Source: Patescibacteria group bacterium
GTDB taxonomy: Bacteria; Patescibacteriota; Microgenomatia; Levybacterales; UBA12049
DNA: 35,201 nt
Reading direction: 5' to 3'
Assembly: GCA_023485715.1 (NCBI GenBank)
Contig: JAMCZG010000025.1
Span: 1 to 35,201, forward strand
In this document: positions 1-25,501 of the stretch, piece by piece
How the letters are laid out: each line of letters opens with the position of its first letter
Numbering within the stretch: the stretch's first letter is position 1
Program-made: the position numbers and the translations under genes
The notes under the pieces: model-generated
What the model saw: only the letters and a program-made list of their open reading frames with translations
What the model was told of the DNA's origin: nothing
The model's database searches: none

Positions 1-109
1 TCAGAAACAAACCACGAATACAGAAACCGCGCAGGTAAAAATAGGCGGAGTTCCCTTTCAGTCGACTCAATCGACAACTTCGGTCGAAAATAACGTTGTT
101 GGCTCTTCG

Positions 110-2593
110 ATGGAACCGGTTAAAAGACAAGATGTTTCGGCACTGACACATTTGGATCCGCGGACGACAACGGTTTTAGAACACGCAAAACAGGAAACGA
201 TGAGGATAAAACAATCGTTTATCGAGCCGGATCAGCTTTTACTCGGCCTTTTGTTCGACGCGGACATTTTTAAACTGTTATCGCAATTTTCTTTAGACGC
301 AGCAAAAATTTCCCGTGAACTGCAGGGAAAAGAAAAAGAAGGGACATTTGTCGGCCAACCAACACTCAGTGATTCGTCTAAACAAATTTTTGAAGCTGCG
401 TATACAGGAGCTCAAGCCCGTGGAGTCGACTTTATAACACCAGAGGATTTGTTAATGGCGATTTTTTCGGCAAGCGTAGACACGGCAAATTATTTACAAT
501 CACAAGGGTTACAGAAAAAAGATCTCGAAGAAAAACTTTCGAAATCGAAGGAATTCTCTTCGGGAAAGAAATCCATACTTGATAAATATAGTACGGACTT
601 GACTGCTCAGGCAAAGGAAGGAGCGCTCGATGCGGTCGCTGGAAGAGACAGAGAGATCGAAAGACTGATACACATTTTACTTAGGAGAACAAAAAACAAT
701 CCCGTAATAATCGGGGAAGCAGGAGTAGGTAAAACTGCTATTGTGGAGGGTCTGGCACAAAAAATCGTAGACGGGACAGCGCCGAAAGACCTTTTAAATA
801 AAAGAATCATTATGCTAGATCTAACTTCTCTAGTCGCAGGTGCTTCTCATAGAGGAGAATTCGAAGAAAGACTTAGAGGAGTTATTCAGGAAGTTCAGGC
901 ATCAAGCGGTCAAATAATATTGTTTATCGACGAAATCCATACCTTAATCGGAGCCGGAGATATCGAGGGAGCACTGGATGCGTCGAATATTATAAAGCCG
1001 TTTTTGGCGCGCGGACAACTCCAGATAATCGGTACAACGACGACCGCAGAGTACAGAAGGTATTTTGAAAAAGACAAGGCTTTTGAGCGAAGGTTTCAGC
1101 CGGTTTTGGTCGATGAACCTGATGAAGAAAAGGCAATAGAGATGCTAAATGTTTTAAAACCTAAATACGAGACTTTTCATAAAGTAACAATTCTTCCCGA
1201 GGCGATCGAAGATGCGGTTCATTTATCAAAACGTTATATCGGGCAGCGTTATCTTCCGGATAAGGGGGTCGATTTAATCGATGAGGCAGCGGCAGAAGTA
1301 AGACTCGAACAGAACGAAGGGAAAAGACAGGATAACCAAGTTAAGTCAGAGGATATAGAAAAAGTCGTGAGTAGTTGGACCGGTATTCCGATTACAAAAT
1401 TAACGGAAGATGAAGGACAGAAGCTTTTACACCTCGAAGAATTAATGCATAAAAAACTTATAAACCAAGAAAACGCCGTTGCAGCAGTCGCAGAATCGGT
1501 TCGAAGGGGAAGAATAGGGCTTGCTAGTGCTAATAGGCCGATTGCCTCATTTGTTTTCCTGGGCCCGACCGGTGTTGGTAAAACAGAGCTTGCAAAAACA
1601 TTAGCCGAAATTCTTTTCGGTCGTTCTGATTTAACAATAAGGCTGGATATGAGCGAATATATGGAAAAACACGAAGTCGCAAAATTAATCGGCGCACCCC
1701 CTGGTTATGTTGGGTATGAAGAAGGCGGCCAACTAACAGAAGCGGTTAGGGCAAAGCCTTATTCAATAGTATTACTCGATGAGATCGAAAAAGCCCATCC
1801 TGATGTGTTTAATATTTTATTGCAGTTACTCGAGGACGGGAGATTAACCGATAATAAAGGAAACACGATTTCGTTTAAAAACACGATAATTATCGCGACT
1901 TCTAATATCGGAAGCGTTTTAATCCAACAACATCTTCTTGATCAAGCAAAAAATACTAAGCCGGTAGCTACTCAGCAGCAGGAAGTTAAACCGCCCGAAG
2001 ACGGTAAAAAAGACTACTCAGAATTATCAAAACTCTTAGTCGACGAACTTAGGAAATTCTTTAAACCTGAGCTTTTAAACCGCTTTGATGAAATCGTCGT
2101 TTTTGAGCCTTTATCCAGAGATAATATGTTAAAGATCGCAAAACTCAGAATAGAAGATACTAAAAAATTACTACTTGAGCAAAAATTCGATTTGGATATA
2201 ACAGAAAAGGCTTTGGCAAAACTTGCCGAAGAAGGTTACGATCCTTTGTATGGAGCAAGGCCATTGCGCCGTCTAATACAAACTTCGATCGAAAATCCGA
2301 TTGCAATACTTATAATCGACAAAACATTTATTGCTGGAGATAAAATTTTAATCGATTATGACGATACCAAAGAACAATTCGCGTTCACAAAAGTAGTGCA
2401 ACAACCCCAACAACCGGGTCAACCGGTTCAAGAACAGCCCTTACCTCAACCCCAGAAAGAAGAAGTTCAAAAAACTACAGACGGAATTGTTAATCAAGAT
2501 CAAAATATTCAAGAATCTCCGAAGCCTCCCGTTCAGCCAGTCCAGAATAGCGGTGGAACCCAGATGTCTCCGTCTGGTAACATAGGAGAGTAA
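110..2593 (+). CDS. Class I Clp/Hsp100 AAA+ unfoldase, ClpC-like, without M-domain or ClpP-docking loop
   Basis: 827-aa ORF with two Clp_N repeats. D1 has Walker A GEAGVGKTA and Walker B ILFIDEIHTL. D2 has Walker A GPTGVGKTE, Walker B VLLDEIEKAH and GARPLRR. D1 is very close to ClpC (RRTKNNPVIIGE, HRGEFEERL). The same frame stays open upstream to nt 2, so the start at ATG 110 is provisional. Confidence 0.9.
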   Translation: MEPVKRQDVSALTHLDPRTTTVLEHAKQETMRIKQSFIEPDQLLLGLLFDADIFKLLSQFSLDAAKISRELQGKEKEGTFVGQPTLSDSSKQIFEAAYTGAQARGVDFITPEDLLMAIFSASVDTANYLQSQGLQKKDLEEKLSKSKEFSSGKKSILDKYSTDLTAQAKEGALDAVAGRDREIERLIHILLRRTKNNPVIIGEAGVGKTAIVEGLAQKIVDGTAPKDLLNKRIIMLDLTSLVAGASHRGEFEERLRGVIQEVQASSGQIILFIDEIHTLIGAGDIEGALDASNIIKPFLARGQLQIIGTTTTAEYRRYFEKDKAFERRFQPVLVDEPDEEKAIEMLNVLKPKYETFHKVTILPEAIEDAVHLSKRYIGQRYLPDKGVDLIDEAAAEVRLEQNEGKRQDNQVKSEDIEKVVSSWTGIPITKLTEDEGQKLLHLEELMHKKLINQENAVAAVAESVRRGRIGLASANRPIASFVFLGPTGVGKTELAKTLAEILFGRSDLTIRLDMSEYMEKHEVAKLIGAPPGYVGYEEGGQLTEAVRAKPYSIVLLDEIEKAHPDVFNILLQLLEDGRLTDNKGNTISFKNTIIIATSNIGSVLIQQHLLDQAKNTKPVATQQQEVKPPEDGKKDYSELSKLLVDELRKFFKPELLNRFDEIVVFEPLSRDNMLKIAKLRIEDTKKLLLEQKFDLDITEKALAKLAEEGYDPLYGARPLRRLIQTSIENPIAILIIDKTFIAGDKILIDYDDTKEQFAFTKVVQQPQQPGQPVQEQPLPQPQKEEVQKTTDGIVNQDQNIQESPKPPVQPVQNSGGTQMSPSGNIGE

Positions 2594-4587
2594 TGGAAGA
2601 AAATTTAGCAGTACAGGAATCAGGCCTTTTCTTCGGGATTAAAAAAAAGTATTTAATTTTAATAGCTGCTTTTCTCTTGATTTTAATAAGCGTATTTGCC
2701 GGAAGTTTAATAGTTAAAAGTATAAAAGAGGAAAAGACGTCTGTACCCGGAATTTCTTCGCCCAAGACATGGGAGATTATCGTTTCTTTCGACACCGGTA
2801 GTCAAAAACTGACATTAAATAAAATCAGTGTTCTCGATCGGGAAATTGTCGCTGATTACACCGGTGCGAAACTTTCACCTTATGAACTTATGGCCGTTAA
2901 CGACAAGGGGGACATAGTTTATAAAACAAAAGTGAATATAACAGAGCAATTATTCTATGATATTTTAGATGTCGACTCAGATATTCCTTCCCCCCCAAAA
3001 AAATTAGATACAATATTATATATTCCATACCAAAAAACAGCTGTAAAAATTAGGATTACCAAAAATAGTGAAACAATTCTTGAGATAATGCTCCCGACTA
3101 AAACATCGTTTAAAATCATTCCGGGTGTTTTTGCAGCATCTTCGACTTGCAGAAAATTAACAACGGTCTTTTTAAGCGATGGGTATACGGACTTTAATCA
3201 ATATCGTTCCGATGTAAGACGATTAATCGACGCCTTCGAATCGATGCCCCCTTATTCTTCAAAGCCCGGTATTTTTGATTTTAAAATAATCGAAAACAGA
3301 GAATCTTTGGGTTGCTTAAACGGAATTTTTAGATGTATAACTAATCCGAAGATTCAGCAGATTAGCCGCGCATCTTACCCGAATGCGTCTAAATTTATTG
3401 TTGTGGTAAATAATCCTAACGCCGCCGCCGTTGACGGTAATGCATTAGGGGTGGCAAATAGTCCCGGAGGAGACACAGCTATTTTTACGAATAGAACAGA
3501 TCTTGACTCTCTTGTCCCCAACCTGTTTACAAAAGTCGCGGTTCACGAATTTTTAGGACATATAGTAGGTATTCTCTATGACAGGTATATTTATCCCTCT
3601 ACATCTCCCTTATCGAGTCTAACATATGCGCCGTTTGGGATTACTAACTGCACTACGTTAGATTCAGTTCCTGTGTTTTGGAATGTAACTCAAATTTACC
3701 AAGGTTGTACGTCAAGGAATCTTTATGCTCCGAGCCCTCTAACTTGTGCAGACGGTCCTGCAAATGGTACTCCAGAAAGCGTAATGAGCGCGGCAAAATG
3801 CGCAGGATATAATTTTGATAGGGTAGAACAAACATGGATAAGAGATTATGTTTTGACAGACTACGATGATCAATGTGGGGGTTCTCCTCCAGTAATTAGC
3901 GACATTCCGACACCGTCAGCGACAGAAACTCCTACACCAACGCCATCGCCTAGCCCGACTATAACACCTACTCCGACAGGAGCAGGGACAAGTCCAACGG
4001 GAGATCTCGCATGTACGGTTGTACACGAGGTAGAAACTTCTTCTACCTGTGATTACGATGAGGTTAATAAATATACAGATTGGTGTCGTACAGGCGAGTG
4101 GCATTGTGATTCAACAAAAGAAGTTGACGATAAGGGGTTACTTAAAAAATATACAGTTAATAGCTGGTGTGAGCCTAATACTAGATGTAGTACGAAACCG
4201 GAAGATGGTGGTCCGAAAGTTTGCGTAGAATGTGATGCTGGAGAAAATTTAATAAATTATATCGCAAGTGAAGAAGAAGCAAGTATCGGAAACGAAGCTG
4301 GTGTTTATTGCAGAAGATTTAAAGGCAATTGTGAATCGGATTGCAGCAAGTGTAAAACAGAAGACTTGTTAACTCATTGGGTGGAGAATAATTATGCTTA
4401 TAACTGCCATTCGTGTTCTTCTCCTGGTCCGGGACCTGACGGGGATCCAACAGGCACTCCTACAGATGTCACACCAACGGAAATTCCTTCTCCAACGCCG
4501 GTTTTATACAGTTGCGTATTTGATCCAAATTGTAAATCTGGAGGTAGCACGATGAGTATCTGTCAACTTATTTGCAGCGAAAAATAG
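2593..4587 (+). CDS. Exported or membrane-anchored peptidase-M64-like protein with variant HExxxH site, PT-rich linkers and Cys-rich C-terminal modules
   Basis: 664-aa ORF whose ATG overlaps the upstream stop (TAATG, 2591-2595), with GGAG 5 nt upstream. There is an N-terminal hydrophobic anchor (YLILIAAFLLILISVFAGSLIV). FLSDGYTDF ... VVVNNPN ... VAVHEFLGHIVGILYDRY resembles the M64 (IgA-peptidase) core as I remember it. PT linkers lie at about 3886-4005 and 4418-4500. The last ~190 residues contain 18 Cys. Confidence 0.6.
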   Translation: MEENLAVQESGLFFGIKKKYLILIAAFLLILISVFAGSLIVKSIKEEKTSVPGISSPKTWEIIVSFDTGSQKLTLNKISVLDREIVADYTGAKLSPYELMAVNDKGDIVYKTKVNITEQLFYDILDVDSDIPSPPKKLDTILYIPYQKTAVKIRITKNSETILEIMLPTKTSFKIIPGVFAASSTCRKLTTVFLSDGYTDFNQYRSDVRRLIDAFESMPPYSSKPGIFDFKIIENRESLGCLNGIFRCITNPKIQQISRASYPNASKFIVVVNNPNAAAVDGNALGVANSPGGDTAIFTNRTDLDSLVPNLFTKVAVHEFLGHIVGILYDRYIYPSTSPLSSLTYAPFGITNCTTLDSVPVFWNVTQIYQGCTSRNLYAPSPLTCADGPANGTPESVMSAAKCAGYNFDRVEQTWIRDYVLTDYDDQCGGSPPVISDIPTPSATETPTPTPSPSPTITPTPTGAGTSPTGDLACTVVHEVETSSTCDYDEVNKYTDWCRTGEWHCDSTKEVDDKGLLKKYTVNSWCEPNTRCSTKPEDGGPKVCVECDAGENLINYIASEEEASIGNEAGVYCRRFKGNCESDCSKCKTEDLLTHWVENNYAYNCHSCSSPGPGPDGDPTGTPTDVTPTEIPSPTPVLYSCVFDPNCKSGGSTMSICQLICSEK

Positions 4588-4661
4588 CAAGTCTCCATTT
4601 GTAATAAATAATTGTTTGCAATTTTACCCTAAAATTATCTACACTAAACTCAGGACTTTTT

Positions 4662-4991
4662 ATGAGTTATTATTTTCTGTTGCCGGTAACTTTTTTGAGA
4701 TTTTGGTTTATCGAAGCGCCGGTTTCTCTAATCGGTTTTTTTGGTTCTGTTAATTCTGCATTCGACCGATTATTTTCTTTAACACTTTTATTTAAAACTT
4801 TTTTTAAACCCTGGAAAAACGAGTATAGGCAAGGCTTGGTTGGATTTTCGATCGGGATGGGGATGCTTATTAAAAGTTGTGTGATTTTAGTCGATTTAAC
4901 GTTATTCTTTCTTTTGTTGTTCGGGGAATTAATCACGGTTTTACTATTTATTTTTTTGCCGATAGCGACGGTTTATTTTTTATTTTATTAA
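4662..4991 (+). CDS. Small polytopic membrane protein (about 3 TM segments), unknown function
   Basis: 109-aa ORF, strongly hydrophobic (FLLPVTFLRFWFIEAPVSLIGFF, LVGFSIGMGMLIKSCVILV, LTLFFLLLFGELITVLLFIFLPIATVYFLF). Its stop lies 1 nt before the next ATG. A weak AGGA lies 6 nt upstream. Confidence 0.6.
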   Translation: MSYYFLLPVTFLRFWFIEAPVSLIGFFGSVNSAFDRLFSLTLLFKTFFKPWKNEYRQGLVGFSIGMGMLIKSCVILVDLTLFFLLLFGELITVLLFIFLPIATVYFLFY

Positions 4992-4992
4992 T

Positions 4993-7392
4993 ATGATAGA
5001 AAACGCCCGATTTTATTATATTTATAGAACATTCCCACTTAGATTACTAAGAATTTTATCGTTTGTTCTATTAGTTTGGACAAGCTATATTGGGCTATCA
5101 AACAGTCTTTTTGGGTCGATTATTTGGCGATTGCCTATATTTTTGCTGTCGTTTTTTTTGATTTCTGAAATTTTCTTTAGATTCAAAATCGCAAAATATA
5201 AACCATCTACGCCAGTTTTAGAAAATAACGGGAAAAATCTATTGAAATCATTTACATTAGAAGCATTGGATGCTTTATATTCTTCTAGGAAAACAATTTT
5301 TGTAGTTAAAACCCTTCTTCATAAAAAACAAATTAGATTTATTTTACAGAAGTCAGATCTTAAAAAAAACGAGATTCCGTTAATCGAAGTTCCAAAGGAA
5401 GAACTCATAGAATCGGCTTTCGAGCTTGTAAGAAGTTTCAATGGAAAATTTGTTACGACGATGGATTTTTTTGTCGCCTACCTTTTAATAATAGAACCTC
5501 AGGCAAAAATCTTGTTCAGAAAAAATTTAAAAAAAGAGGAACTGCTTCATATTTTATTTTGGGCAAGGTATGATTTTTCTTTTGAGGAAGCACAAAAACC
5601 CTATAGAGTAAAATTTTGGGGGGAGGGAATCGGCGAAGATTGGATAACGGGATGGACTTTGGAAACAAAAAAATACACGATGGATATAACTCCCCAGATT
5701 CTTAAAAAAGAGATCGTTTTAGTCGGCCGCGAAAAAGAATTTAAACAAATGATGGAAGCCCTTTACAGAGGAGAAAAAAGTAATGTCTTACTTGTTGGTG
5801 AACCGGGAACCGGCAAGGCGACGTTGGTCGAAAAATTTGCCTTCGAAAGTATTGCCGGAAATTTACAAGGCAGGTTTACCCACCTTAAGTTTTACGAGCT
5901 TTTAGTCGGTCCGCTTTTAGCCGGAATCGAAAACCAAGGGGATTTAGAAGCTAGACTTCAGGCGATAATCGAGGAAATATCTCATTCGTTAAACATCGTA
6001 ATTTTTATTCCCGATATCCAAAATATTTTAGGCGCGTCAACTTTTAATTTAAATCTTTCGGGTGCTTTAATTCCGTACCTTAAAGACAGAAGGATTATTA
6101 TAATCGCGACTTCAGAACCTGCGGAATACAAAAAACATATCGAGCCAGAAATTGGGTTTATCGAATTTTTTGAAGTAATAAAAGTTGCTGAACCGGATTC
6201 AGAAAAAGCGCTGGAAATGCTTTTAGAAAAAGCAAATATTATCGAATATAATAATCATGTTTTACTGACTTACAGGGCAGTTACAGAGGCGATTAAATTT
6301 TCAAAAAAATATTCACAAAACTTGTATCTTCCGGGTGCTGCGGCGAGTCTTCTCGCAGATACGGCAAGTTCTGTCTACTTTTCGGGAAAAAAGGTTGTGA
6401 GGGACGAAGATGTTATAAGAAAAGTTGAGGAGAAAACAAATATTTCGGTTGCCGCACCCAAAAAAGAAGAAAAAGAGTTGTTACTTAATTTTGAACAAAA
6501 ACTTCACGAAAGAATTATTGACCAAGAAGAAGCTGTGTTTGCGATCGCGGAAGCCATAAGAAGAGTCCGGTCGGGGATGGTAAATCAAAACAGGCCGATT
6601 TCGTTTCTATTTTTAGGGCCAACCGGGGTCGGAAAAACCGAAACGTCAAAAGCTTTGGCGAGTTTGTATTTTGGGGGAGAGGAAAAGATGATAAGACTAG
6701 ATATGAGCGAATATCAGGGAGAGGACGGGGAAAGACGGTTGCTCGGCGCGCCGCCGGGGCAAGGACACGAAAAAGGCGAATTAACAGAAAAAATTTACGA
6801 CAATCCTTATTCACTAATCCTTTTAGATGAATTCGAAAAGGCAAACCCCAAAATTTTAGATCTTTTCTTGCAGGTTTTTGAAGACGGAAGATTAACAGAT
6901 AATAAAGGAAAAACGGTTTCGTTTGAAAACAGCATTATTATCGCAACCTCTAACGCCGGATCAGAATTTATCCGCGAGCAGATCGAAAACTTTGCCACTA
7001 CAGATAAAGATTTTCAAGCAAAACTTTTAGAATTATTACAAACGCAGGGAATTTTTAAGCCGGAACTTTTAAATAGATTTGATGCCATAGTTGTGTTTAA
7101 ACCTTTAGGAGAAAAAGAAGTTTTGCAAATTACAAAATTAATTCTTGATAGTGTTTCAAAAGAATTATTAAAACAGGATATTACGCTAAATTTTGATGAG
7201 ACCTTAGTTCAAAAAGTCGCACGGGAAGGATTCGATATTCAATTTGGTGCACGACCACTCCGACGCTTTGTTCAAAACAATATAGAAGACTTAATCGCAA
7301 AAAAAATTTTAACCGGCGAAATAAGCCGCGGAAGTAATATTTTACTTTCCGTCGATCAGGATAACAATATTAATATTTCTCCAATAGGATAA
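4993..7392 (+). CDS. Membrane-anchored Clp/Hsp100-family AAA+ protein with degenerate D1 ring and intact D2 ring
   Basis: 799-aa ORF with two N-terminal TM helices (about aa 17-63) followed by a Clp_N-like region. D1 Walker A is GEPGTGKAT (Ala after Lys, codon 5818-5820). The D1 Walker B position reads VIFIPDIQ (Pro-Asp at 6010-6015 instead of Asp-Glu). The D1 RRF arginine pair is replaced by IEFF. D2 is canonical (GPTGVGKTE, LILLDEFEKA, ATSNAG, GARPLRR). Confidence 0.85.
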   Translation: MIENARFYYIYRTFPLRLLRILSFVLLVWTSYIGLSNSLFGSIIWRLPIFLLSFFLISEIFFRFKIAKYKPSTPVLENNGKNLLKSFTLEALDALYSSRKTIFVVKTLLHKKQIRFILQKSDLKKNEIPLIEVPKEELIESAFELVRSFNGKFVTTMDFFVAYLLIIEPQAKILFRKNLKKEELLHILFWARYDFSFEEAQKPYRVKFWGEGIGEDWITGWTLETKKYTMDITPQILKKEIVLVGREKEFKQMMEALYRGEKSNVLLVGEPGTGKATLVEKFAFESIAGNLQGRFTHLKFYELLVGPLLAGIENQGDLEARLQAIIEEISHSLNIVIFIPDIQNILGASTFNLNLSGALIPYLKDRRIIIIATSEPAEYKKHIEPEIGFIEFFEVIKVAEPDSEKALEMLLEKANIIEYNNHVLLTYRAVTEAIKFSKKYSQNLYLPGAAASLLADTASSVYFSGKKVVRDEDVIRKVEEKTNISVAAPKKEEKELLLNFEQKLHERIIDQEEAVFAIAEAIRRVRSGMVNQNRPISFLFLGPTGVGKTETSKALASLYFGGEEKMIRLDMSEYQGEDGERRLLGAPPGQGHEKGELTEKIYDNPYSLILLDEFEKANPKILDLFLQVFEDGRLTDNKGKTVSFENSIIIATSNAGSEFIREQIENFATTDKDFQAKLLELLQTQGIFKPELLNRFDAIVVFKPLGEKEVLQITKLILDSVSKELLKQDITLNFDETLVQKVAREGFDIQFGARPLRRFVQNNIEDLIAKKILTGEISRGSNILLSVDQDNNINISPIG

Positions 7393-13754: not shown

Positions 13755-13805
13755 TAATCCTTAATAGTTCTCGTATTTATTTTTTGATTGTTGTATTATA
13801 AATTT

Positions 13806-14948
13806 ATGGATCCTTTGTTAATAGGTGATAATTCTAGTGATAATAAAAATGTCGAAATAAAAAACTCTTCGAATGCGAGTGCGGCCGCCGACCAAATAAG
13901 ACGTTTGGGGGAAAAAATCGAAAACGGAAATTTACCAGAAGACCTCAAGCAGCTTCTCATCGAAAGAATTCAGCGATTAACACTTCTTAGGGCATCTTCG
14001 GGATATTTAAGTCCTAACTATATTATCGAATACGAAAACACGTCTTCTTATGTTAATTGGGTCGTGAGTTTGCCTTGGGGAAAGATGACAAACGATTTAT
14101 TAGATTTGGTAAAAGCGAAAGAAATTTTAAACAAAAATCATTATGGTTTAAATTCGGTTAAGGACAGAATTTTAGAGTATTTAGCGTCCATAATTTTAAA
14201 CGAAAAAAATAAAACGTCGGAGCAAGAATTCAGGGTTTTACGCGCGCCGATTATTTGTCTGGTCGGTCTTGTCGGAACTGGAAAAACAACCCTTGCGTAT
14301 TCGATCGCAGAAGCTTTAGGAAGAAAATTCGAGCGGATTCCGTTTGGGGGCATGGGAGATTCGAGGGCGTTACGAGGTCAGTCGAGGGCGTTCCCAGATG
14401 CAGAACCAGGATCAATAGTAAAGAAACTAGTTCATTCCCAGGCAAAAAATTCGGTTATATTGCTTGATGAATTAGACAGAGTTTCCCAGGAGGCCAGAGC
14501 CGATATAATGGGAGTACTGGTTGAACTTTTGGATCCAGAGCAAAACAGGGCGTTTACAGACCACTACGTTGATTATCCTTTTGATCTATCTCAAATTCTT
14601 TTTGTCGCGACTGCAAACAACACGACGAATATTTCAACAGCTGTTTTGGACAGGCTAGAGATTATCCAGATGCCCTCCTATACAGACGCCGAAAAAACTG
14701 CGATCGGAAAAGACTATTTGTTTCCCAAAATTCGTTTGCAGACCGGGTTGTCACAAAATCAATTGATTGTCGACGAGGGAGTCTGGCCACTAATTATTCG
14801 GCCTTTGGGATTTGATTCGGGGATAAGAAGTCTTGAAAGGACAATTCAAGGGGTCTGCCGAAAAGTAGCCAGATATATTGTCGAGGGCAAGGGACAATCT
14901 TTTCATATAACAACAGAAAATATTAAAGAATTTATGCCGCAATATTAA
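13806..14948 (+). CDS. Lon-type AAA+ ATPase module lacking both the Lon N-domain and the S16 protease domain
   Basis: Collinear with E. coli Lon from about the YIDWMVQVPW region to just before the protease domain. Matching stretches are NWVVSLPWGK, HYGLNSVKDRILEYLA, Walker A GLVGTGKTT (14265-14291), Walker B ILLDELDR, LDPEQN, VLDRLEII and GIRSLER. The ORF ends 4 nt before rnj. The track start is TTG 13788, but I prefer ATG 13806. Confidence 0.85.
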   Translation: MDPLLIGDNSSDNKNVEIKNSSNASAAADQIRRLGEKIENGNLPEDLKQLLIERIQRLTLLRASSGYLSPNYIIEYENTSSYVNWVVSLPWGKMTNDLLDLVKAKEILNKNHYGLNSVKDRILEYLASIILNEKNKTSEQEFRVLRAPIICLVGLVGTGKTTLAYSIAEALGRKFERIPFGGMGDSRALRGQSRAFPDAEPGSIVKKLVHSQAKNSVILLDELDRVSQEARADIMGVLVELLDPEQNRAFTDHYVDYPFDLSQILFVATANNTTNISTAVLDRLEIIQMPSYTDAEKTAIGKDYLFPKIRLQTGLSQNQLIVDEGVWPLIIRPLGFDSGIRSLERTIQGVCRKVARYIVEGKGQSFHITTENIKEFMPQY

Positions 14949-22488: not shown

Positions 22489-23223
22489 TTATATTTTTTC
22501 GAATCTCGCTTTAATGATTAACCTTTTCCATGTGGTTCCGGGGGGCGTGCAGGTAATCAAAGTTAAATAGCTGTCGTCATAGTTTTGACTAAAAACAGAA
22601 GTATCGTCCGCGTCAACAACAGTTATGTTAAATACCTTATACAGATATTCGATTCCATCTATCTTTACTTTAATCTCGTCTCCTATTTTTAGCAGATATG
22701 TTGTCGCAAAAATTGTTTTGTAATCATTTTGATTAAAAAGTTGAGGTAATGTCGAATGTCCGACAACAACAGCATTTCCTTTATTGGGTGGTATCGCTGT
22801 CCCGCTATAATTAATTAGATGTTTGCTGAGATCAAAATCTACCGTCGAAACGGTTGCATCTTTTATTCCAACTTTTGGGATGGAAAGGGTATAAGATTGA
22901 ATTTGCGGTGATTTATCCTCTGTCTTAAAATTTGGAAACCAATTTTGGGCATTAGTATAATCGATACCGCTAATTTTTTCTGTCGTTGCGGCGATTAAGC
23001 TTTGGACAGTTGATTTATTGACAATCGTATATTTGGGAATCGGTGCAGTAAGTTCATTAGACGCAAAAACCGGGGCAAAATATATTTGCCATGAGATTAA
23101 TGGAAAAAAAATATACAGTGCTGCGATAAAACCGAAAAATGCTATAAGAAAACTACCGAATTGCAAAAATTTTCGGGAATCAATCTTTATTTGGTTTTTG
23201 CTTTTGTAGTAATATTCACTCAT
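22489..23223 (-). CDS. Sortase (cysteine transpeptidase)
   Basis: 244 aa with an N-terminal TM, catalytic His (VVVGHSTLP), a TLITC motif (Cys codon 22549-22551) and a downstream Arg (KRLIIKARF). The start overlaps the upstream gene by 8 nt. Confidence 0.85.
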   Translation of the reverse strand: MSEYYYKSKNQIKIDSRKFLQFGSFLIAFFGFIAALYIFFPLISWQIYFAPVFASNELTAPIPKYTIVNKSTVQSLIAATTEKISGIDYTNAQNWFPNFKTEDKSPQIQSYTLSIPKVGIKDATVSTVDFDLSKHLINYSGTAIPPNKGNAVVVGHSTLPQLFNQNDYKTIFATTYLLKIGDEIKVKIDGIEYLYKVFNITVVDADDTSVFSQNYDDSYLTLITCTPPGTTWKRLIIKARFEKI

Positions 23224-25501
23224 TGCTTTGGATAACGATTCTGATATTGTCCGCTTTTTGTGGTAAAATTTTTGGCAGGAACGGAATATTGGGGGAAAGA
23301 GATACAGATCGATCAGAGACCTGAGGAAGTTTTGATATTATTTCTTCGGCTTCTTTAAACGATTTTCCTTTTATTGTTTCAGCCAACTTTTTTTCATCGA
23401 TTTTGGATAATAGAGATGCTTTTATTACGATTGTCCCGGTTATTTCTTTTTCGTTTTTAACTTTTGGACTGTTGATAGAAGAATCAATATTATCAATCAT
23501 CATATCTTGAATATTGTTTTTTAAAAGATTAGTTGAAAAAGATTCGAGATCTTTATTTGGGTAACAAAGCATTGTGTAATCGATGGTTGCCTTTAACGAT
23601 ACTTCTCTTGCTTCATCGTTTTGTTTTTTGCTAAAAGTTTTTTTGGTAAGGGTTATATCGGAGAAGACAGGGATAATCGAGTGTCCTGTCGGGATTTTTT
23701 TGATTATGTCGTCCTTTGCCTTTTTTTCGAATTTTTTGGCGACCTCGTTGGTTAATTTATCGATATCGTTTTTAGATACAATTGTGATTTCTTTTTTTGT
23801 TCCTCCTGAAAAAGCAGAATCGTTTTTAGCAACGATTGTTGTTGTCGGATAAGAACCGATTGTAAATTTAGTACTGGATGGGAGATTGTGTTCTTTACCG
23901 ATTTCTTTTGCCGTAACTTCGATTTTCTTTGTAACCGGCGGGGAACTTGCGTCTCCCGATCCAGAAGAAATAGTTACTGCTTTATCGAAAGTAAATTCAA
24001 GCTCATTCGGCGAAACAATAGTTGTTCCCTGGGGAAATGTTTTTTCCTCCGTAAGGCGACTATACAAAGTGACCGTTCCCTTTGCTTTATCGCCAGTTTC
24101 TTTTTTTCCGGTGGCTTGGGTTGAAGCTTCGCCCGTCTCGGAAACAGAGATCAAATTTCCGGCGATAATATTTTTTGAAATATCAGTTTTTTTATCCGCG
24201 ACAAAAATTGCATCGCTTTTCTTCTCTATAGATTTTGGATTAATATTTATGGTGACTTGCGCGCCCAGGTAAAAAATATAAAGAATAAATAAAAGAATTA
24301 GAAACGCAATTATAATAGGTGGGATAAAAACGATTTTATTACCAGATTTCATAAATAAAAACATCTTTCCGAAAATATTTCTTATTATTTTAACCGGTAG
24401 AGCCAATATACTTCCTGATCTGGTTATTTCTTCTTTGGTTTCATAATTTACTTCGATTTTTTCAGGTCTTCTTCTTTCCTCGGCGATTGCTGTTTGAGGT
24501 TCTATTTCTTCTTCGTCTTGTTCTTCTAATAATTCTTGTATTGGTGTATCTTTTTCTTCTTCGATCTCGTCAGTCTCTTTTTTTACCGATTTTGGCTCTA
24601 CTTTTATAACATCCGCTTCTTTTATAAAACCAAAGCTTTCTTCGTTCAGGGTCGCTGCTTGAGTCGTTTCCTTGTTTTTATCTTCATCTATTCTTGATTT
24701 TAGATCATCAGCTATTATTTTTTCTTTTTTTGCTTCATCTCCTAATACTTCAAAACCCATCTGTGTTGCCGCACCGAACAATATTGCTTTTGAGTCAAAC
24801 CATTTTGGGAGGTTAACGATTTGAGGGACATGTAAAAATGGAAGACTTTTGCTCCATACGTGTCCGATAAATTCCTGACTAAGATTTTCGCTTTCCTTGT
24901 CATCATAGATAATAATTTTCGAAGGTAAGATTTCATAGTCTGTAAAATGATGTAGAACTTGGTCTGTTATTTTTGGTATTGATCCCTCGATTTTTGCTGT
25001 TTTCGTTTCGATAATTTTCCCGGCTCGGACAAGAGAAACAGTAATATTTTTTTTGTCGACCTCGATAAGAATCGCAGAAACAGGCACTCCTTCTTCCTGT
25101 TGCAAACGATGCGTTATTGCTTCTTGGGTAACTAAAAATCCTATCGGAGCAAGTCCTAATGCGTCGCACGATTTTTTAAGTTTAGAAAGATAATCGTGTT
25201 TTATCTTCGATTGTTCTATCCAATTTTGTTTTACGCCGAAAATTGTTTTTAGTGTTTCGGTATTCTCAGAAATTGAGTTCTCAGCGATCGAAATCGCCTT
25301 GTCCATCGTCTCGATTAATTCTTCTTGCGTTACGGTTTCGATCGAGTCTTTAAAATACTCTTCGTTTTTACCGATGACTTGAATTTTTCCCGCGATAACC
25401 TCAAAAACTACCGCACTTACTTTTTCGTCTCTTAAAAGAAGAGCTAAATAATGTTCTGGTTTTTCTTTTTTTCCGAAAATAGAAGGCAGAGCGAGTTTCA
25501 T
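23216..25501 (-). CDS. Bitopic membrane protein: degenerate actin-like (FtsA/PilM-like) cytoplasmic domain, acidic linker, one TM, large extracytoplasmic domain
   Basis: 761-aa ORF. The N-terminal ~260 aa show a beta-beta-beta-alpha pattern (YLALLLRDEKVSAVVFEV..GKIQVIG), plus LGLAPIGFLVTQEAI and SAILIEVDKKNITVSLV, but no DxG/GGGT phosphate motifs. The linker is E/D/K-rich. The TM is IVFIPPIIIAFLILLFILYIFYL (about nt 24255-24340). The function is unknown. Confidence 0.7.
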   Translation of the reverse strand: MKLALPSIFGKKEKPEHYLALLLRDEKVSAVVFEVIAGKIQVIGKNEEYFKDSIETVTQEELIETMDKAISIAENSISENTETLKTIFGVKQNWIEQSKIKHDYLSKLKKSCDALGLAPIGFLVTQEAITHRLQQEEGVPVSAILIEVDKKNITVSLVRAGKIIETKTAKIEGSIPKITDQVLHHFTDYEILPSKIIIYDDKESENLSQEFIGHVWSKSLPFLHVPQIVNLPKWFDSKAILFGAATQMGFEVLGDEAKKEKIIADDLKSRIDEDKNKETTQAATLNEESFGFIKEADVIKVEPKSVKKETDEIEEEKDTPIQELLEEQDEEEIEPQTAIAEERRRPEKIEVNYETKEEITRSGSILALPVKIIRNIFGKMFLFMKSGNKIVFIPPIIIAFLILLFILYIFYLGAQVTININPKSIEKKSDAIFVADKKTDISKNIIAGNLISVSETGEASTQATGKKETGDKAKGTVTLYSRLTEEKTFPQGTTIVSPNELEFTFDKAVTISSGSGDASSPPVTKKIEVTAKEIGKEHNLPSSTKFTIGSYPTTTIVAKNDSAFSGGTKKEITIVSKNDIDKLTNEVAKKFEKKAKDDIIKKIPTGHSIIPVFSDITLTKKTFSKKQNDEAREVSLKATIDYTMLCYPNKDLESFSTNLLKNNIQDMMIDNIDSSINSPKVKNEKEITGTIVIKASLLSKIDEKKLAETIKGKSFKEAEEIISKLPQVSDRSVSLSPNIPFLPKILPQKADNIRIVIQSNE

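Follow-up and report, generated by a model that had tools for sequence, protein, structure and literature searches.

We analysed contig JAMCZG010000025.1 (GenBank assembly GCA_023485715.1) of a Patescibacteria group bacterium of the Levybacterales over its 35,201 nucleotides (the window), with attention to four open reading frames (ORFs) of the plus strand, located at 110-2593, 2593-4587, 4662-4991 and 4993-7392 and called g1 to g4 below. The first and the last encode Hsp100-type ATPases with two rings, D1 and D2; between them lie g2, a Cys-rich exported or anchored protein, and g3, a small membrane protein. A previous description drawn from the letters alone (the sequence-only reading) saw in them a coupled module, in which a pair of unfoldases would handle or quality-control the g2 product. 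Comparison with related genomes shows that g3-g4, and not the four genes, is the conserved unit. We propose, with a probability of about 50%, that this pair is a D2-driven, non-threading module for membrane remodelling, tied to proteostasis, a function deduced from sequence.

Relatives were collected by an alignment-based scan for g3 in one genome per GTDB species. This gave 163 loci, of which 80, from Levybacteria and Gottesmanbacteria, were kept, and their neighbourhood content was assigned by tblastn and ORF clustering. Counts given below are relative to the subset of loci assessable for each question (for instance 75, 66, 63, 52 or 51). In all 75 assessable Levybacteria-type loci, g4 was found directly 3′ of g3. 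For 64 of the 66 loci measured, the distance separating the two genes fell between −19 and +20 nucleotides; the median was 1, and 21 loci showed a 4-nucleotide overlap. Such a tight spacing is expected for translational coupling. In the window, a single base stands between the TAA stop codon of g3 (4989-4991) and the ATG of g4 (4993), the whole junction occupying 4989..4995 of the plus strand.

The pair was also searched for outside of this group. A profile of the distant tail of g3-like sequences yielded 61 proteins, some of them named Peribacteria or Peregrinibacteria, and 10 genomic contexts were looked up. A g4-family gene was present 3′ of the g3-like gene in 10 out of 10, in contexts unrelated to one another: pairs were found after tmk, rplJ-rplL, tuf-rpsJ, rpsP, the gene of an RsmD-like methyltransferase or that of a POTRA protein. 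At nine of these loci a Clp-like gene encoding 793-898 residues follows directly or overlaps, save in L083, where an ORF of 94 residues with one transmembrane (TM) segment (L083:7478-7762) intervenes, separating the g3-like gene from a g4-like one devoid of its own hairpin. As its translation shows 'XX', corresponding to ambiguous bases, this arrangement could reflect a split gene or an artefact of assembly. The partner found in L090 (L090:5394-6848, 484 residues, with dus as next gene) has the N-domain of g4 and a degenerate D1 (E = 4e-20), and no D2. No g1-like gene was seen beside the pair in any of the 10 distant loci. The pairing is kept in every close locus (75 of 75) and in every distant one (10 of 10), the latter in unrelated contexts, and it cannot be due to chance. 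Recurrence of the neighbourhood, which the sequence-only reading had itself named as a test, is therefore verified for g3-g4; the four-gene order is restricted to close relatives.

By its Pfam matches, motif alignment and TM prediction, g4 (4993..7392, plus strand) is a class I Hsp100 paralogue, predicted to be anchored by an N-terminal hairpin of two helices (5044-5175). TM prediction gives 55 of the 66 g4 orthologs two helices at the N-terminus, and none elsewhere in the protein. A Clp_N-like repeat and then a family-specific motif, 'GEGIGEDWITGWTLETKKYT', are also encoded, and the Pfam families AAA, AAA_lid_9, AAA_2 and ClpB_D2-small all score above cut-off. Motif states were read from the 66 g4 orthologs, from 33 g1 orthologs and from 7 distant members of the g4 family, and the positions of the g4 motifs were confirmed by alignment to solved ClpC. 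In D1, the Walker A motif GEPGTGKA (5797-5820) retains the GxxGxGK signature, which is kept in the orthologs, although most of them have lost the Ser or Thr that follows the Lys of Walker A. At the place of Walker B stands VIFIPDIQ (5998-6021), the canonical hhhhDE being replaced by YIP[DNE]F across the 66 orthologs, and the D1 pore loop AGIENQGDLEARL (5920-5958) has no aromatic residue in any of them. D2 presents Walker A GPTGVGKT (6616-6639) and Walker B ILLDEF (6817-6834); these motifs hardly vary among the orthologs, and the same is true of sensor 1, of the Arg finger (ELLNRFD) and of sensor 2 (GARPLRR). No Tyr is present in the D2 pore loop, GAPPGQGHEKGE at 6745-6780; its consensus in the 66 orthologs is G[AS]PPGEG[DS]E[RK]GE, again without Tyr, and 12 of them have deletions. 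Distant members follow the same trend: two N-terminal TM helices in 6 of the 7 examined, intact D2 catalytic motifs in all 7, and a degenerate D1 Walker B in 5, L086 and L087 retaining DE or DD. Their D2 pore loop was shortened or deleted in all those examined, except L083. The fold, the two TM helices and the mutated first ring announced by the sequence-only reading were thus all recovered. Since D1 is dead, and both rings are devoid of aromatic pore loops, g4 is probably not a threading unfoldase, and the idea of an unfoldase pair is at odds with this family-wide loss.

Like the known class I Hsp100 proteins (ClpC, ClpB, ClpA, ClpV/TssH), g1 and g4 are built from an N-domain, D1, AAA_lid_9, D2 (AAA_2) and ClpB_D2-small. 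Their best solved relatives are ClpC and ClpB, with E = 4e-207 for g1 and 8e-114 for g4. Functional Walker A and B motifs are present in both rings of g1, but not in D1 of g4, and the aromatic residue of the Hsp100 D2 pore loop (GYVG) is found in g1, not in g4. Neither protein reaches the cut-off of the NCBIfam equivalogs for ClpB, ClpA, TssH, ClpK or ClpG; with the ClpB model, whose cut-off is 1232, g1 scores 880 and g4 442. Both also differ from ClpB and ClpC by the absence of the M-domain, which means that neither is ClpB-like or ClpC-like in its regulation. The M-domain is the element that couples ClpB to DnaK. In g4, neither an M-domain nor a ClpP loop was found, the segment ENFATTD aligning to YVGFNVQD of ClpC. 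Devoid of the ClpP-docking loop, g1 and g4 are not protease partners of the ClpA/ClpC type; nor does Pfam reveal any peptidase domain in g4. Identity between g1 and g4 is 36%. When the N-terminal 240 residues of g4 were used as a database query, just 9 fragmentary matches were returned. A reading as ClpV, and hence as a part of a type VI secretion system, was rejected: TIGR03345 scores were 696 for g1 and 366 for g4, below the cut-off of 885, and no gene of such a system is present in the window or in the loci.

The partner, g3, is a 109-residue membrane protein (4662..4991, plus strand) matching no Pfam or NCBIfam family. The sequence-only reading gave it about three TM segments. We find a firm C-terminal TM hairpin and a weakly hydrophobic N-terminal helix, i. 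e. two to three membrane segments. A basic loop, TFFKPWKNEYRQGLVGFS (4797-4850), is near-invariant. The structure model obtained with a 30-sequence alignment (predicted local distance difference test, pLDDT, of 88.5) places a helix at residues 7-37, a short helix at 40-45, the conserved loop at 46-59 and a helix of 49 residues at 60-108, which hydropathy divides into two TM segments. No PDB entry matched this model at E ≤ 0.001 with Foldseek, and more generally no relative of g3 was found in Pfam, NCBIfam, PADLOC or PDB. Its close database relatives amount to 174, from Levybacteria or Gottesmanbacteria where a name is given. A g3 profile run against 1.84 billion representative proteins collected just 76 clusters, all made of short stand-alone proteins. 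The distant relatives (120-141 residues) carry WWY..P...FS...LL[KR]T.F.PW[KH]RD.

The mechanism that we propose runs as follows. Co-translated, g3 and g4 would be made in fixed proportion and would form a membrane complex. The conserved basic loop of g3 would be cytoplasmic, following the positive-inside rule, and could contact the N-terminal and D1 part of g4, a contact that would fit with the D2-less variant of L090, still paired with a g3-like gene. D1 would then be a ring for assembly that binds nucleotide, and D2 would be the sole motor. A ring without gripping pore loops would not thread polypeptides; more likely, g4 would work as a switch powered by ATP, or would remodel a client near the membrane or the g3 assembly itself, in a Torsin-like manner. 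Torsin is a membrane-associated AAA+ protein related to the D2 of Clp/Hsp100, without aromatic pore loops, which needs the membrane-spanning cofactors LAP1 and LULL1 (PMC5425593). This eukaryotic protein of the endoplasmic reticulum and nuclear envelope is the nearest functional analogy to g3-g4, with the loss of pore loops common to both. The differences are clear: Torsin has a single ring and no Arg finger, this residue being supplied by the cofactor, whereas g4 has two rings, its own Arg finger and a sensor 2. Likewise, the Torsin cofactors have a degenerate AAA fold, whereas g3 is a 109-residue helical membrane protein without AAA fold. g4 is not a member of the Torsin family, and what we draw is an analogy only, no homology being claimed beyond the AAA+ core.

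Other AAA+ machines share part of these traits. Pex1/Pex6 (with Pex15/Pex26) and NSF combine one ring for assembly and nucleotide binding with one motor ring, and Pex1/Pex6 is anchored by a small tail-anchored partner. These proteins belong to the classical AAA clade and have functional pore loops in the active ring, whereas g4 is an Hsp100; the Pex1/Pex6 anchor is a separate protein, whereas g4 bears its own TM hairpin. In FtsH, which acts in the quality control of membrane proteins (see also PMC7949044), a cytoplasmic AAA+ module comes after two N-terminal TM helices. Its AAA ring is single, equipped with aromatic pore loops, and fused to an M41 protease. In contrast, g4 is devoid of a protease domain, and no protease partner is encoded nearby.

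The link to proteostasis comes from the neighbours. In relatives the wider order is hrcA-grpE-dnaK-dnaJ, then an optional block c13-c11-(c15)-g1 with a variable gene (c11, c13 and c15 are families described below), then g3-g4-nusA-infB-DHH-rpsO-pnp. The identities of HrcA, GrpE, HSP70, DnaJ and c13 (T4SS_pilin) are Pfam-based. Two types of loci are thus met, with and without the c13-c11-(c15)-g1 block. dnaJ lies 5′ of g3 in 44 of 63 loci, directly adjoining it in 7; in 29 of these 44, g1 is absent between the two genes, and a few variable genes are found instead. On the other side, nusA is downstream of g3-g4 in 46 of 51 loci, and the nusA-infB-rpsO-pnp synteny is kept. Within the 35-kb window, no ClpP, ClpS, MecA or DnaK is encoded, as the sequence-only reading had stated. 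The absence of a DnaK partner is an effect of where the window begins, the dnaK operon being seen directly upstream in relatives. Two distant loci point in the same direction, since groES-groEL adjoins the pair in L084, and a Cpn60 gene is nearby in L081. From these neighbours alone (the dnaK operon, and groES-groEL in two Peribacteria/Peregrinibacteria loci), a role of g3-g4 in envelope or membrane protein homeostasis is suggested. We also looked for the controlling inverted repeat of chaperone expression (CIRCE). None was found in the window at up to 3 mismatches; CIRCE-like repeats, variants of TTAGCAGTC-N9-TACTGCTAA, occur just 5′ of hrcA in 18 loci (e. g. L007:5650 and L063:3169). A dedicated heat-shock operator for g3-g4 or for g1 was rejected, CIRCE being confined to hrcA.

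Several observations weigh against the remodelling module proposed here. The g3-g4 complex, its ATPase activity and any client are putative, and the tie to proteostasis is one that synteny suggests. In relatives the CIRCE-like repeats never stand before g3 or g1, and the distant pairs adjoin unrelated housekeeping genes, such as tmk, rplJ-rplL, tuf-rpsJ or rpsP. The loss of aromatic pore loops does not prove the loss of translocation, and the L083 member actually keeps its Tyr (GAPPGYQG). Unlike Torsin, g4 has two rings and an Arg finger of its own. Based on pairwise scores, 7 of 9 distant g4-like proteins are nearer to g4 and 2 slightly nearer to g1, which does not prove monophyly. Finally, the single-sequence AlphaFold2 model of g4 had a pLDDT of 34.8, with the N-terminal helical hairpin alone reaching 61-74.

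We now turn to the first gene. The start at 110 assigned by the sequence-only reading turned out to be wrong: the frame is open from base 2, and this Met is the internal one of a conserved '[IV]VGS[SA]M' in the ortholog alignment. Because Met 110 lies within this motif, g1 (2..2593, plus strand; Pfam and ortholog evidence) is cut by the window edge at its 5′ end. All 32 orthologs analysed at this end start with 'M[LF]GNLF..KK', continue with a Q/P/T-rich linker of low complexity, from about 30 to several hundred residues long, and then show '[IV]VGS[SA]M.P..RQDLS.LSHLD'. This short conserved peptide resembles a motif for docking or targeting. At the other end, g1 has a Q/P-rich tail, the low-complexity tails of orthologs measuring 49-554 residues. 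The rest of the product is that of a soluble double-ring Hsp100 ATPase, with AAA, AAA_lid_9, AAA_2 and ClpB_D2-small above the Pfam cut-off, and canonical Walker motifs in both rings, invariant across the 33 orthologs. Its D1 pore loop is AGASHRGEFEER (836-871), and reads AGASHRGEFEERL in 33 of 33 orthologs, with His in place of the Tyr of ClpB/ClpC; the D2 pore loop, GAPPGYVGYEEGG (1691-1729), has the canonical GYVGY, also invariant. By these motifs, both rings of g1 are active. The M-domain is absent, a 55-residue gap being observed against B. subtilis ClpC and about 30 residues being present there in 29 of 33 orthologs (the segment of g4 is just as short), and the [LIVM]-G-[FL] ClpP loop (VGF/AGF in ClpC) was found in none of the 33. 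The picture of a ClpC-like double ring with intact Walker motifs, no M-domain and no ClpP loop is therefore confirmed by Pfam, by the ClpC alignment and by the orthologs.

When scored on the same strand and within 10 kb of g3, g1 was upstream of g3 in 27 of 52 loci, at 165-7079 nucleotides, and abutted it directly in 11. Its association with another set of genes is closer. In 26 of 27 loci, c13, a 99-residue protein resembling the pilin of type IV secretion systems (PF18895), and c11, a polytopic membrane protein of 750-2147 residues belonging to no family and of the size of VirB6, are encoded within two genes 5′ of g1. An example of this block is L010:2590-5344, with 25 further loci; in our contig it would be situated beyond the left edge of the window. 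Since the association is seen in 26 of 27 loci, against 27 of 52 for g3-g4, the data suggest that g1 belongs to a separate pilin/membrane-protein/ATPase module, to which it is tied more tightly than to g3-g4. It is an accessory neighbour, outside the core pair. As to its function, g1 would be an active threading ATPase, independent of ClpP and DnaK, and belonging with c13 and c11. In several loci an additional gene, c15, is intercalated between c11 and g1 (e. g. L015:3804-5195). It encodes an exported family of about 460 residues, ending with 'HPF[ST]C..' and having no Pfam or NCBIfam match, and tandem copies of it stand directly 5′ of g3 in two loci (L037 and L069).

The second gene, g2 (2593..4587, plus strand; motif and family alignment), encodes an exported or anchored zincin-like protein with a signal anchor at 2656-2712 and the motif HEFLGH at 3544-3561. 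In its HExxGH signature, H318, E319 and H323 are invariant among the 9 sequences of the family. The protein has 26 Cys, of which 14 lie in a 165-residue middle region found only in the window copy among the 9 members. Export or anchoring, the metallopeptidase motif and the richness in Cys agree with the sequence-only reading. Its likening to Peptidase M64 (the immunoglobulin A peptidase) fared less well: g2 has the HExxH, but against PF09471 it scores 19.3 bits, below the gathering cut-off of 26 (residues 184-342 of g2 aligned to 8-170 of the profile, a segment that spans HExxH), and only 2 of the 9 family members match the profile at E ≤ 0.01. A g2 family profile had no match among PDB sequences at E ≤ 1. 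On sequence grounds, g2 is better called an unclassified zincin-like exoprotein, the M64 label being weak.

Only 9 of the 80 loci carry a g2-like gene, and the slot that these genes occupy between g1 and g3 is variable: it is empty in 11 loci, and contains g2 in 8, an S8 subtilase with its prodomain in 4, an M4 thermolysin-like gene in 2 and unrelated genes in 9. The three unrelated exoprotease families, g2-type zincin, S8 and M4, have in common a four-Cys tail at the extreme C-terminus, preceded by a P/T-rich linker, with the pattern C-x(2,3)-D-P-x(1,2)-C-x(6,8)-C-x-L-x-C-T-x-[KN]. In g2 it reads LYSCVFDPNCKSGGSTMSICQLICSEK (4504-4584), in the S8 proteins FFDCRVDPNCTPDQESIHFCPLICTPK and in the M4 proteins FNCVIDPKCSSGQKNLQFCPLICTPK. 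A strict version of the motif gave 9 matches among 1,086 ORFs, and 9 out of 9 were immediately 5′ of g3. Tagged proteases, always encoded just 5′ of g3, are found in about 17 of 80 loci, all in a single subclade (for example L019:8054-9934, L009:7646-9928 and about 14 other loci). The tail matched no sorting-domain model of NCBIfam or Pfam; it may be a tag for surface retention or sorting. As it is limited to one subclade, it cannot define the function of g3-g4. g2 itself would be one of several interchangeable tagged exoproteases. Neither g1 nor g2 is required by g3-g4.

Other explanations have to be weighed against the remodelling module. Its main rival starts from g1: g4 would be a catalytically reduced anchoring subunit that co-assembles with g1 or docks it at the membrane, g3 stabilising the anchor. 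Precedents exist, as Pex1/Pex6 is held by Pex15/Pex26, and inactive FtsHi subunits join active ones. This explanation fits the half of the loci where g1 adjoins: g1 precedes g3 with the same orientation in 27 of 52 loci, and abuts it in 11. Both ATPases are devoid of M-domain and ClpP loop, the GYVGY of D2 is present in g1 and missing in g4, the conserved P-loop of g4 D1 could serve ring assembly, and the 'MLGNLF' peptide of g1, carried by a long flexible linker, is a possible docking motif. Yet g1 is missing from the dnaJ-g3 interval of at least 29 Levybacteria loci, none of the 10 distant pairs has a g1-like neighbour, g1 is more tightly tied to c13-c11 (26 of 27), and the two ATPases are just 36% identical. 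We consider such an anchoring role unlikely. The original proposal, where the four genes form one machine and the two Hsp100 proteins handle or quality-control the Cys-rich exported protease, appears still more improbable to us, even if 15 of the 34 loci with g1 upstream hold an exported protease (g2-type, S8 or M4) in the slot, most of them bearing the same four-Cys tail after a P/T-rich linker. The position of the strict tail matches, 9 out of 9 immediately 5′ of g3, and the TAATG overlap between g1 and g2 also speak for it. Against these stand the low frequencies, 9 of 80 loci for g2-like genes and about 17 of 80 for tagged proteases, in one subclade, whereas g3-g4 is universal without g2 or tagged proteases. 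Because most genomes have g3-g4 without such a gene, quality control of the exoprotein cannot be the core function. The slot proteases carry N-terminal anchors of the Sec type, cytoplasmic Hsp100 proteins are not known to act as export factors, and g4 lacks threading loops.

A simpler view is that g1 and g2 stand beside g3-g4 by inherited synteny in a compact genome, around a slot prone to insertions that separates the dnaK operon from nusA, the flanking modules being functionally unlinked. It accounts for the two types of loci, with and without c13-c11-(c15)-g1, for the highly variable content of the g1-g3 slot and for the nusA-infB-rpsO-pnp synteny downstream (46 of 51 loci), and we grant it slightly less than an even chance. 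It leaves the g3-g4 pairing itself unexplained, though, and the repeated presence of tagged proteases in one slot is not obviously random: this recurrence is an unexplained regularity. Simple operon packing, the null hypothesis of the sequence-only reading, is therefore suitable for the g1/g2 juxtaposition, and rejected for g3-g4. We finally considered a defence or toxin-like system, where the ATPase would control a small membrane effector. A small TM protein with an NTPase is a common architecture in defence, and in PADLOC the D2 of both g1 and g4 is matched by the models PDC-M37B and DolB, with E of about 1e-36 to 1e-40. These matches, however, concern the generic AAA_2 module only, and g1 as much as g4, with g2 and g3 unmatched; the pair also occupies a fixed position of the core genome, amid housekeeping genes, in every species examined, and not variable islands. 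A defence role, which we regard as highly improbable, was rejected on the ground of these generic matches.

As for the remainder of the window, the four ORFs and their junctions are as initially claimed. g1 and g2 overlap by TAATG, stop and start, at 2591-2595, with AGGAGA ahead, and g2 is separated from g3 by a spacer of 74 nucleotides (4588..4661, no strand assigned) in which the search for a consensus promoter, a terminator or a CIRCE element gave nothing; the gap between g3 and g4 is of 1 nucleotide. Consensus scans of the window for promoters and terminators were close to chance (27 matches for 20.1 expected, and 10 for 8.3), and do not inform on transcription units. Located 3′ of g4 are nusA, infB, a DHH-family gene, rpsO and pnp, then a Lon-like AAA module, RNase J, FtsK and further housekeeping genes. 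The Lon-like protein, directly after pnp (13788-14948, plus strand), has 386 residues and corresponds to the AAA+ and lid portions of Lon only (TIGR00763 252-571, below cut-off), without peptidase domain. It is the third atypical AAA+ protein of the window. An ORF of 761 residues (23216-25501, minus strand) had no match in Pfam (E ≤ 1e-5) or NCBIfam (E ≤ 0.001).

Hsp100/Clp proteins are the textbook threading machines, relying on pore-loop tyrosines, and the g4 lineage points to a different mode of action. Our literature searches turned up no account, for Patescibacteria or the Candidate Phyla Radiation (CPR), of an Hsp100 that is anchored in the membrane or devoid of pore loops and has a small membrane partner. 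On a more speculative note, and with clear doubt, g3-g4 might be an unrecognised CPR machine, a membrane-embedded Hsp100 derivative that has abandoned substrate threading and works as a D2-driven switch with an obligate small membrane protein. If this is true, the pair would be, in prokaryotes, the functional equivalent of Torsin with its cofactors, and its target would be the cell envelope or the membrane protein complexes of small episymbiotic bacteria. In Levybacteria g3-g4 is a core pair with a fixed position, and divergent versions exist in other CPR lineages; in genomes as small as these, genes that are retained are likely to matter. The pair offers a testable target for the envelope and proteostasis biology of bacteria that are mostly uncultured.

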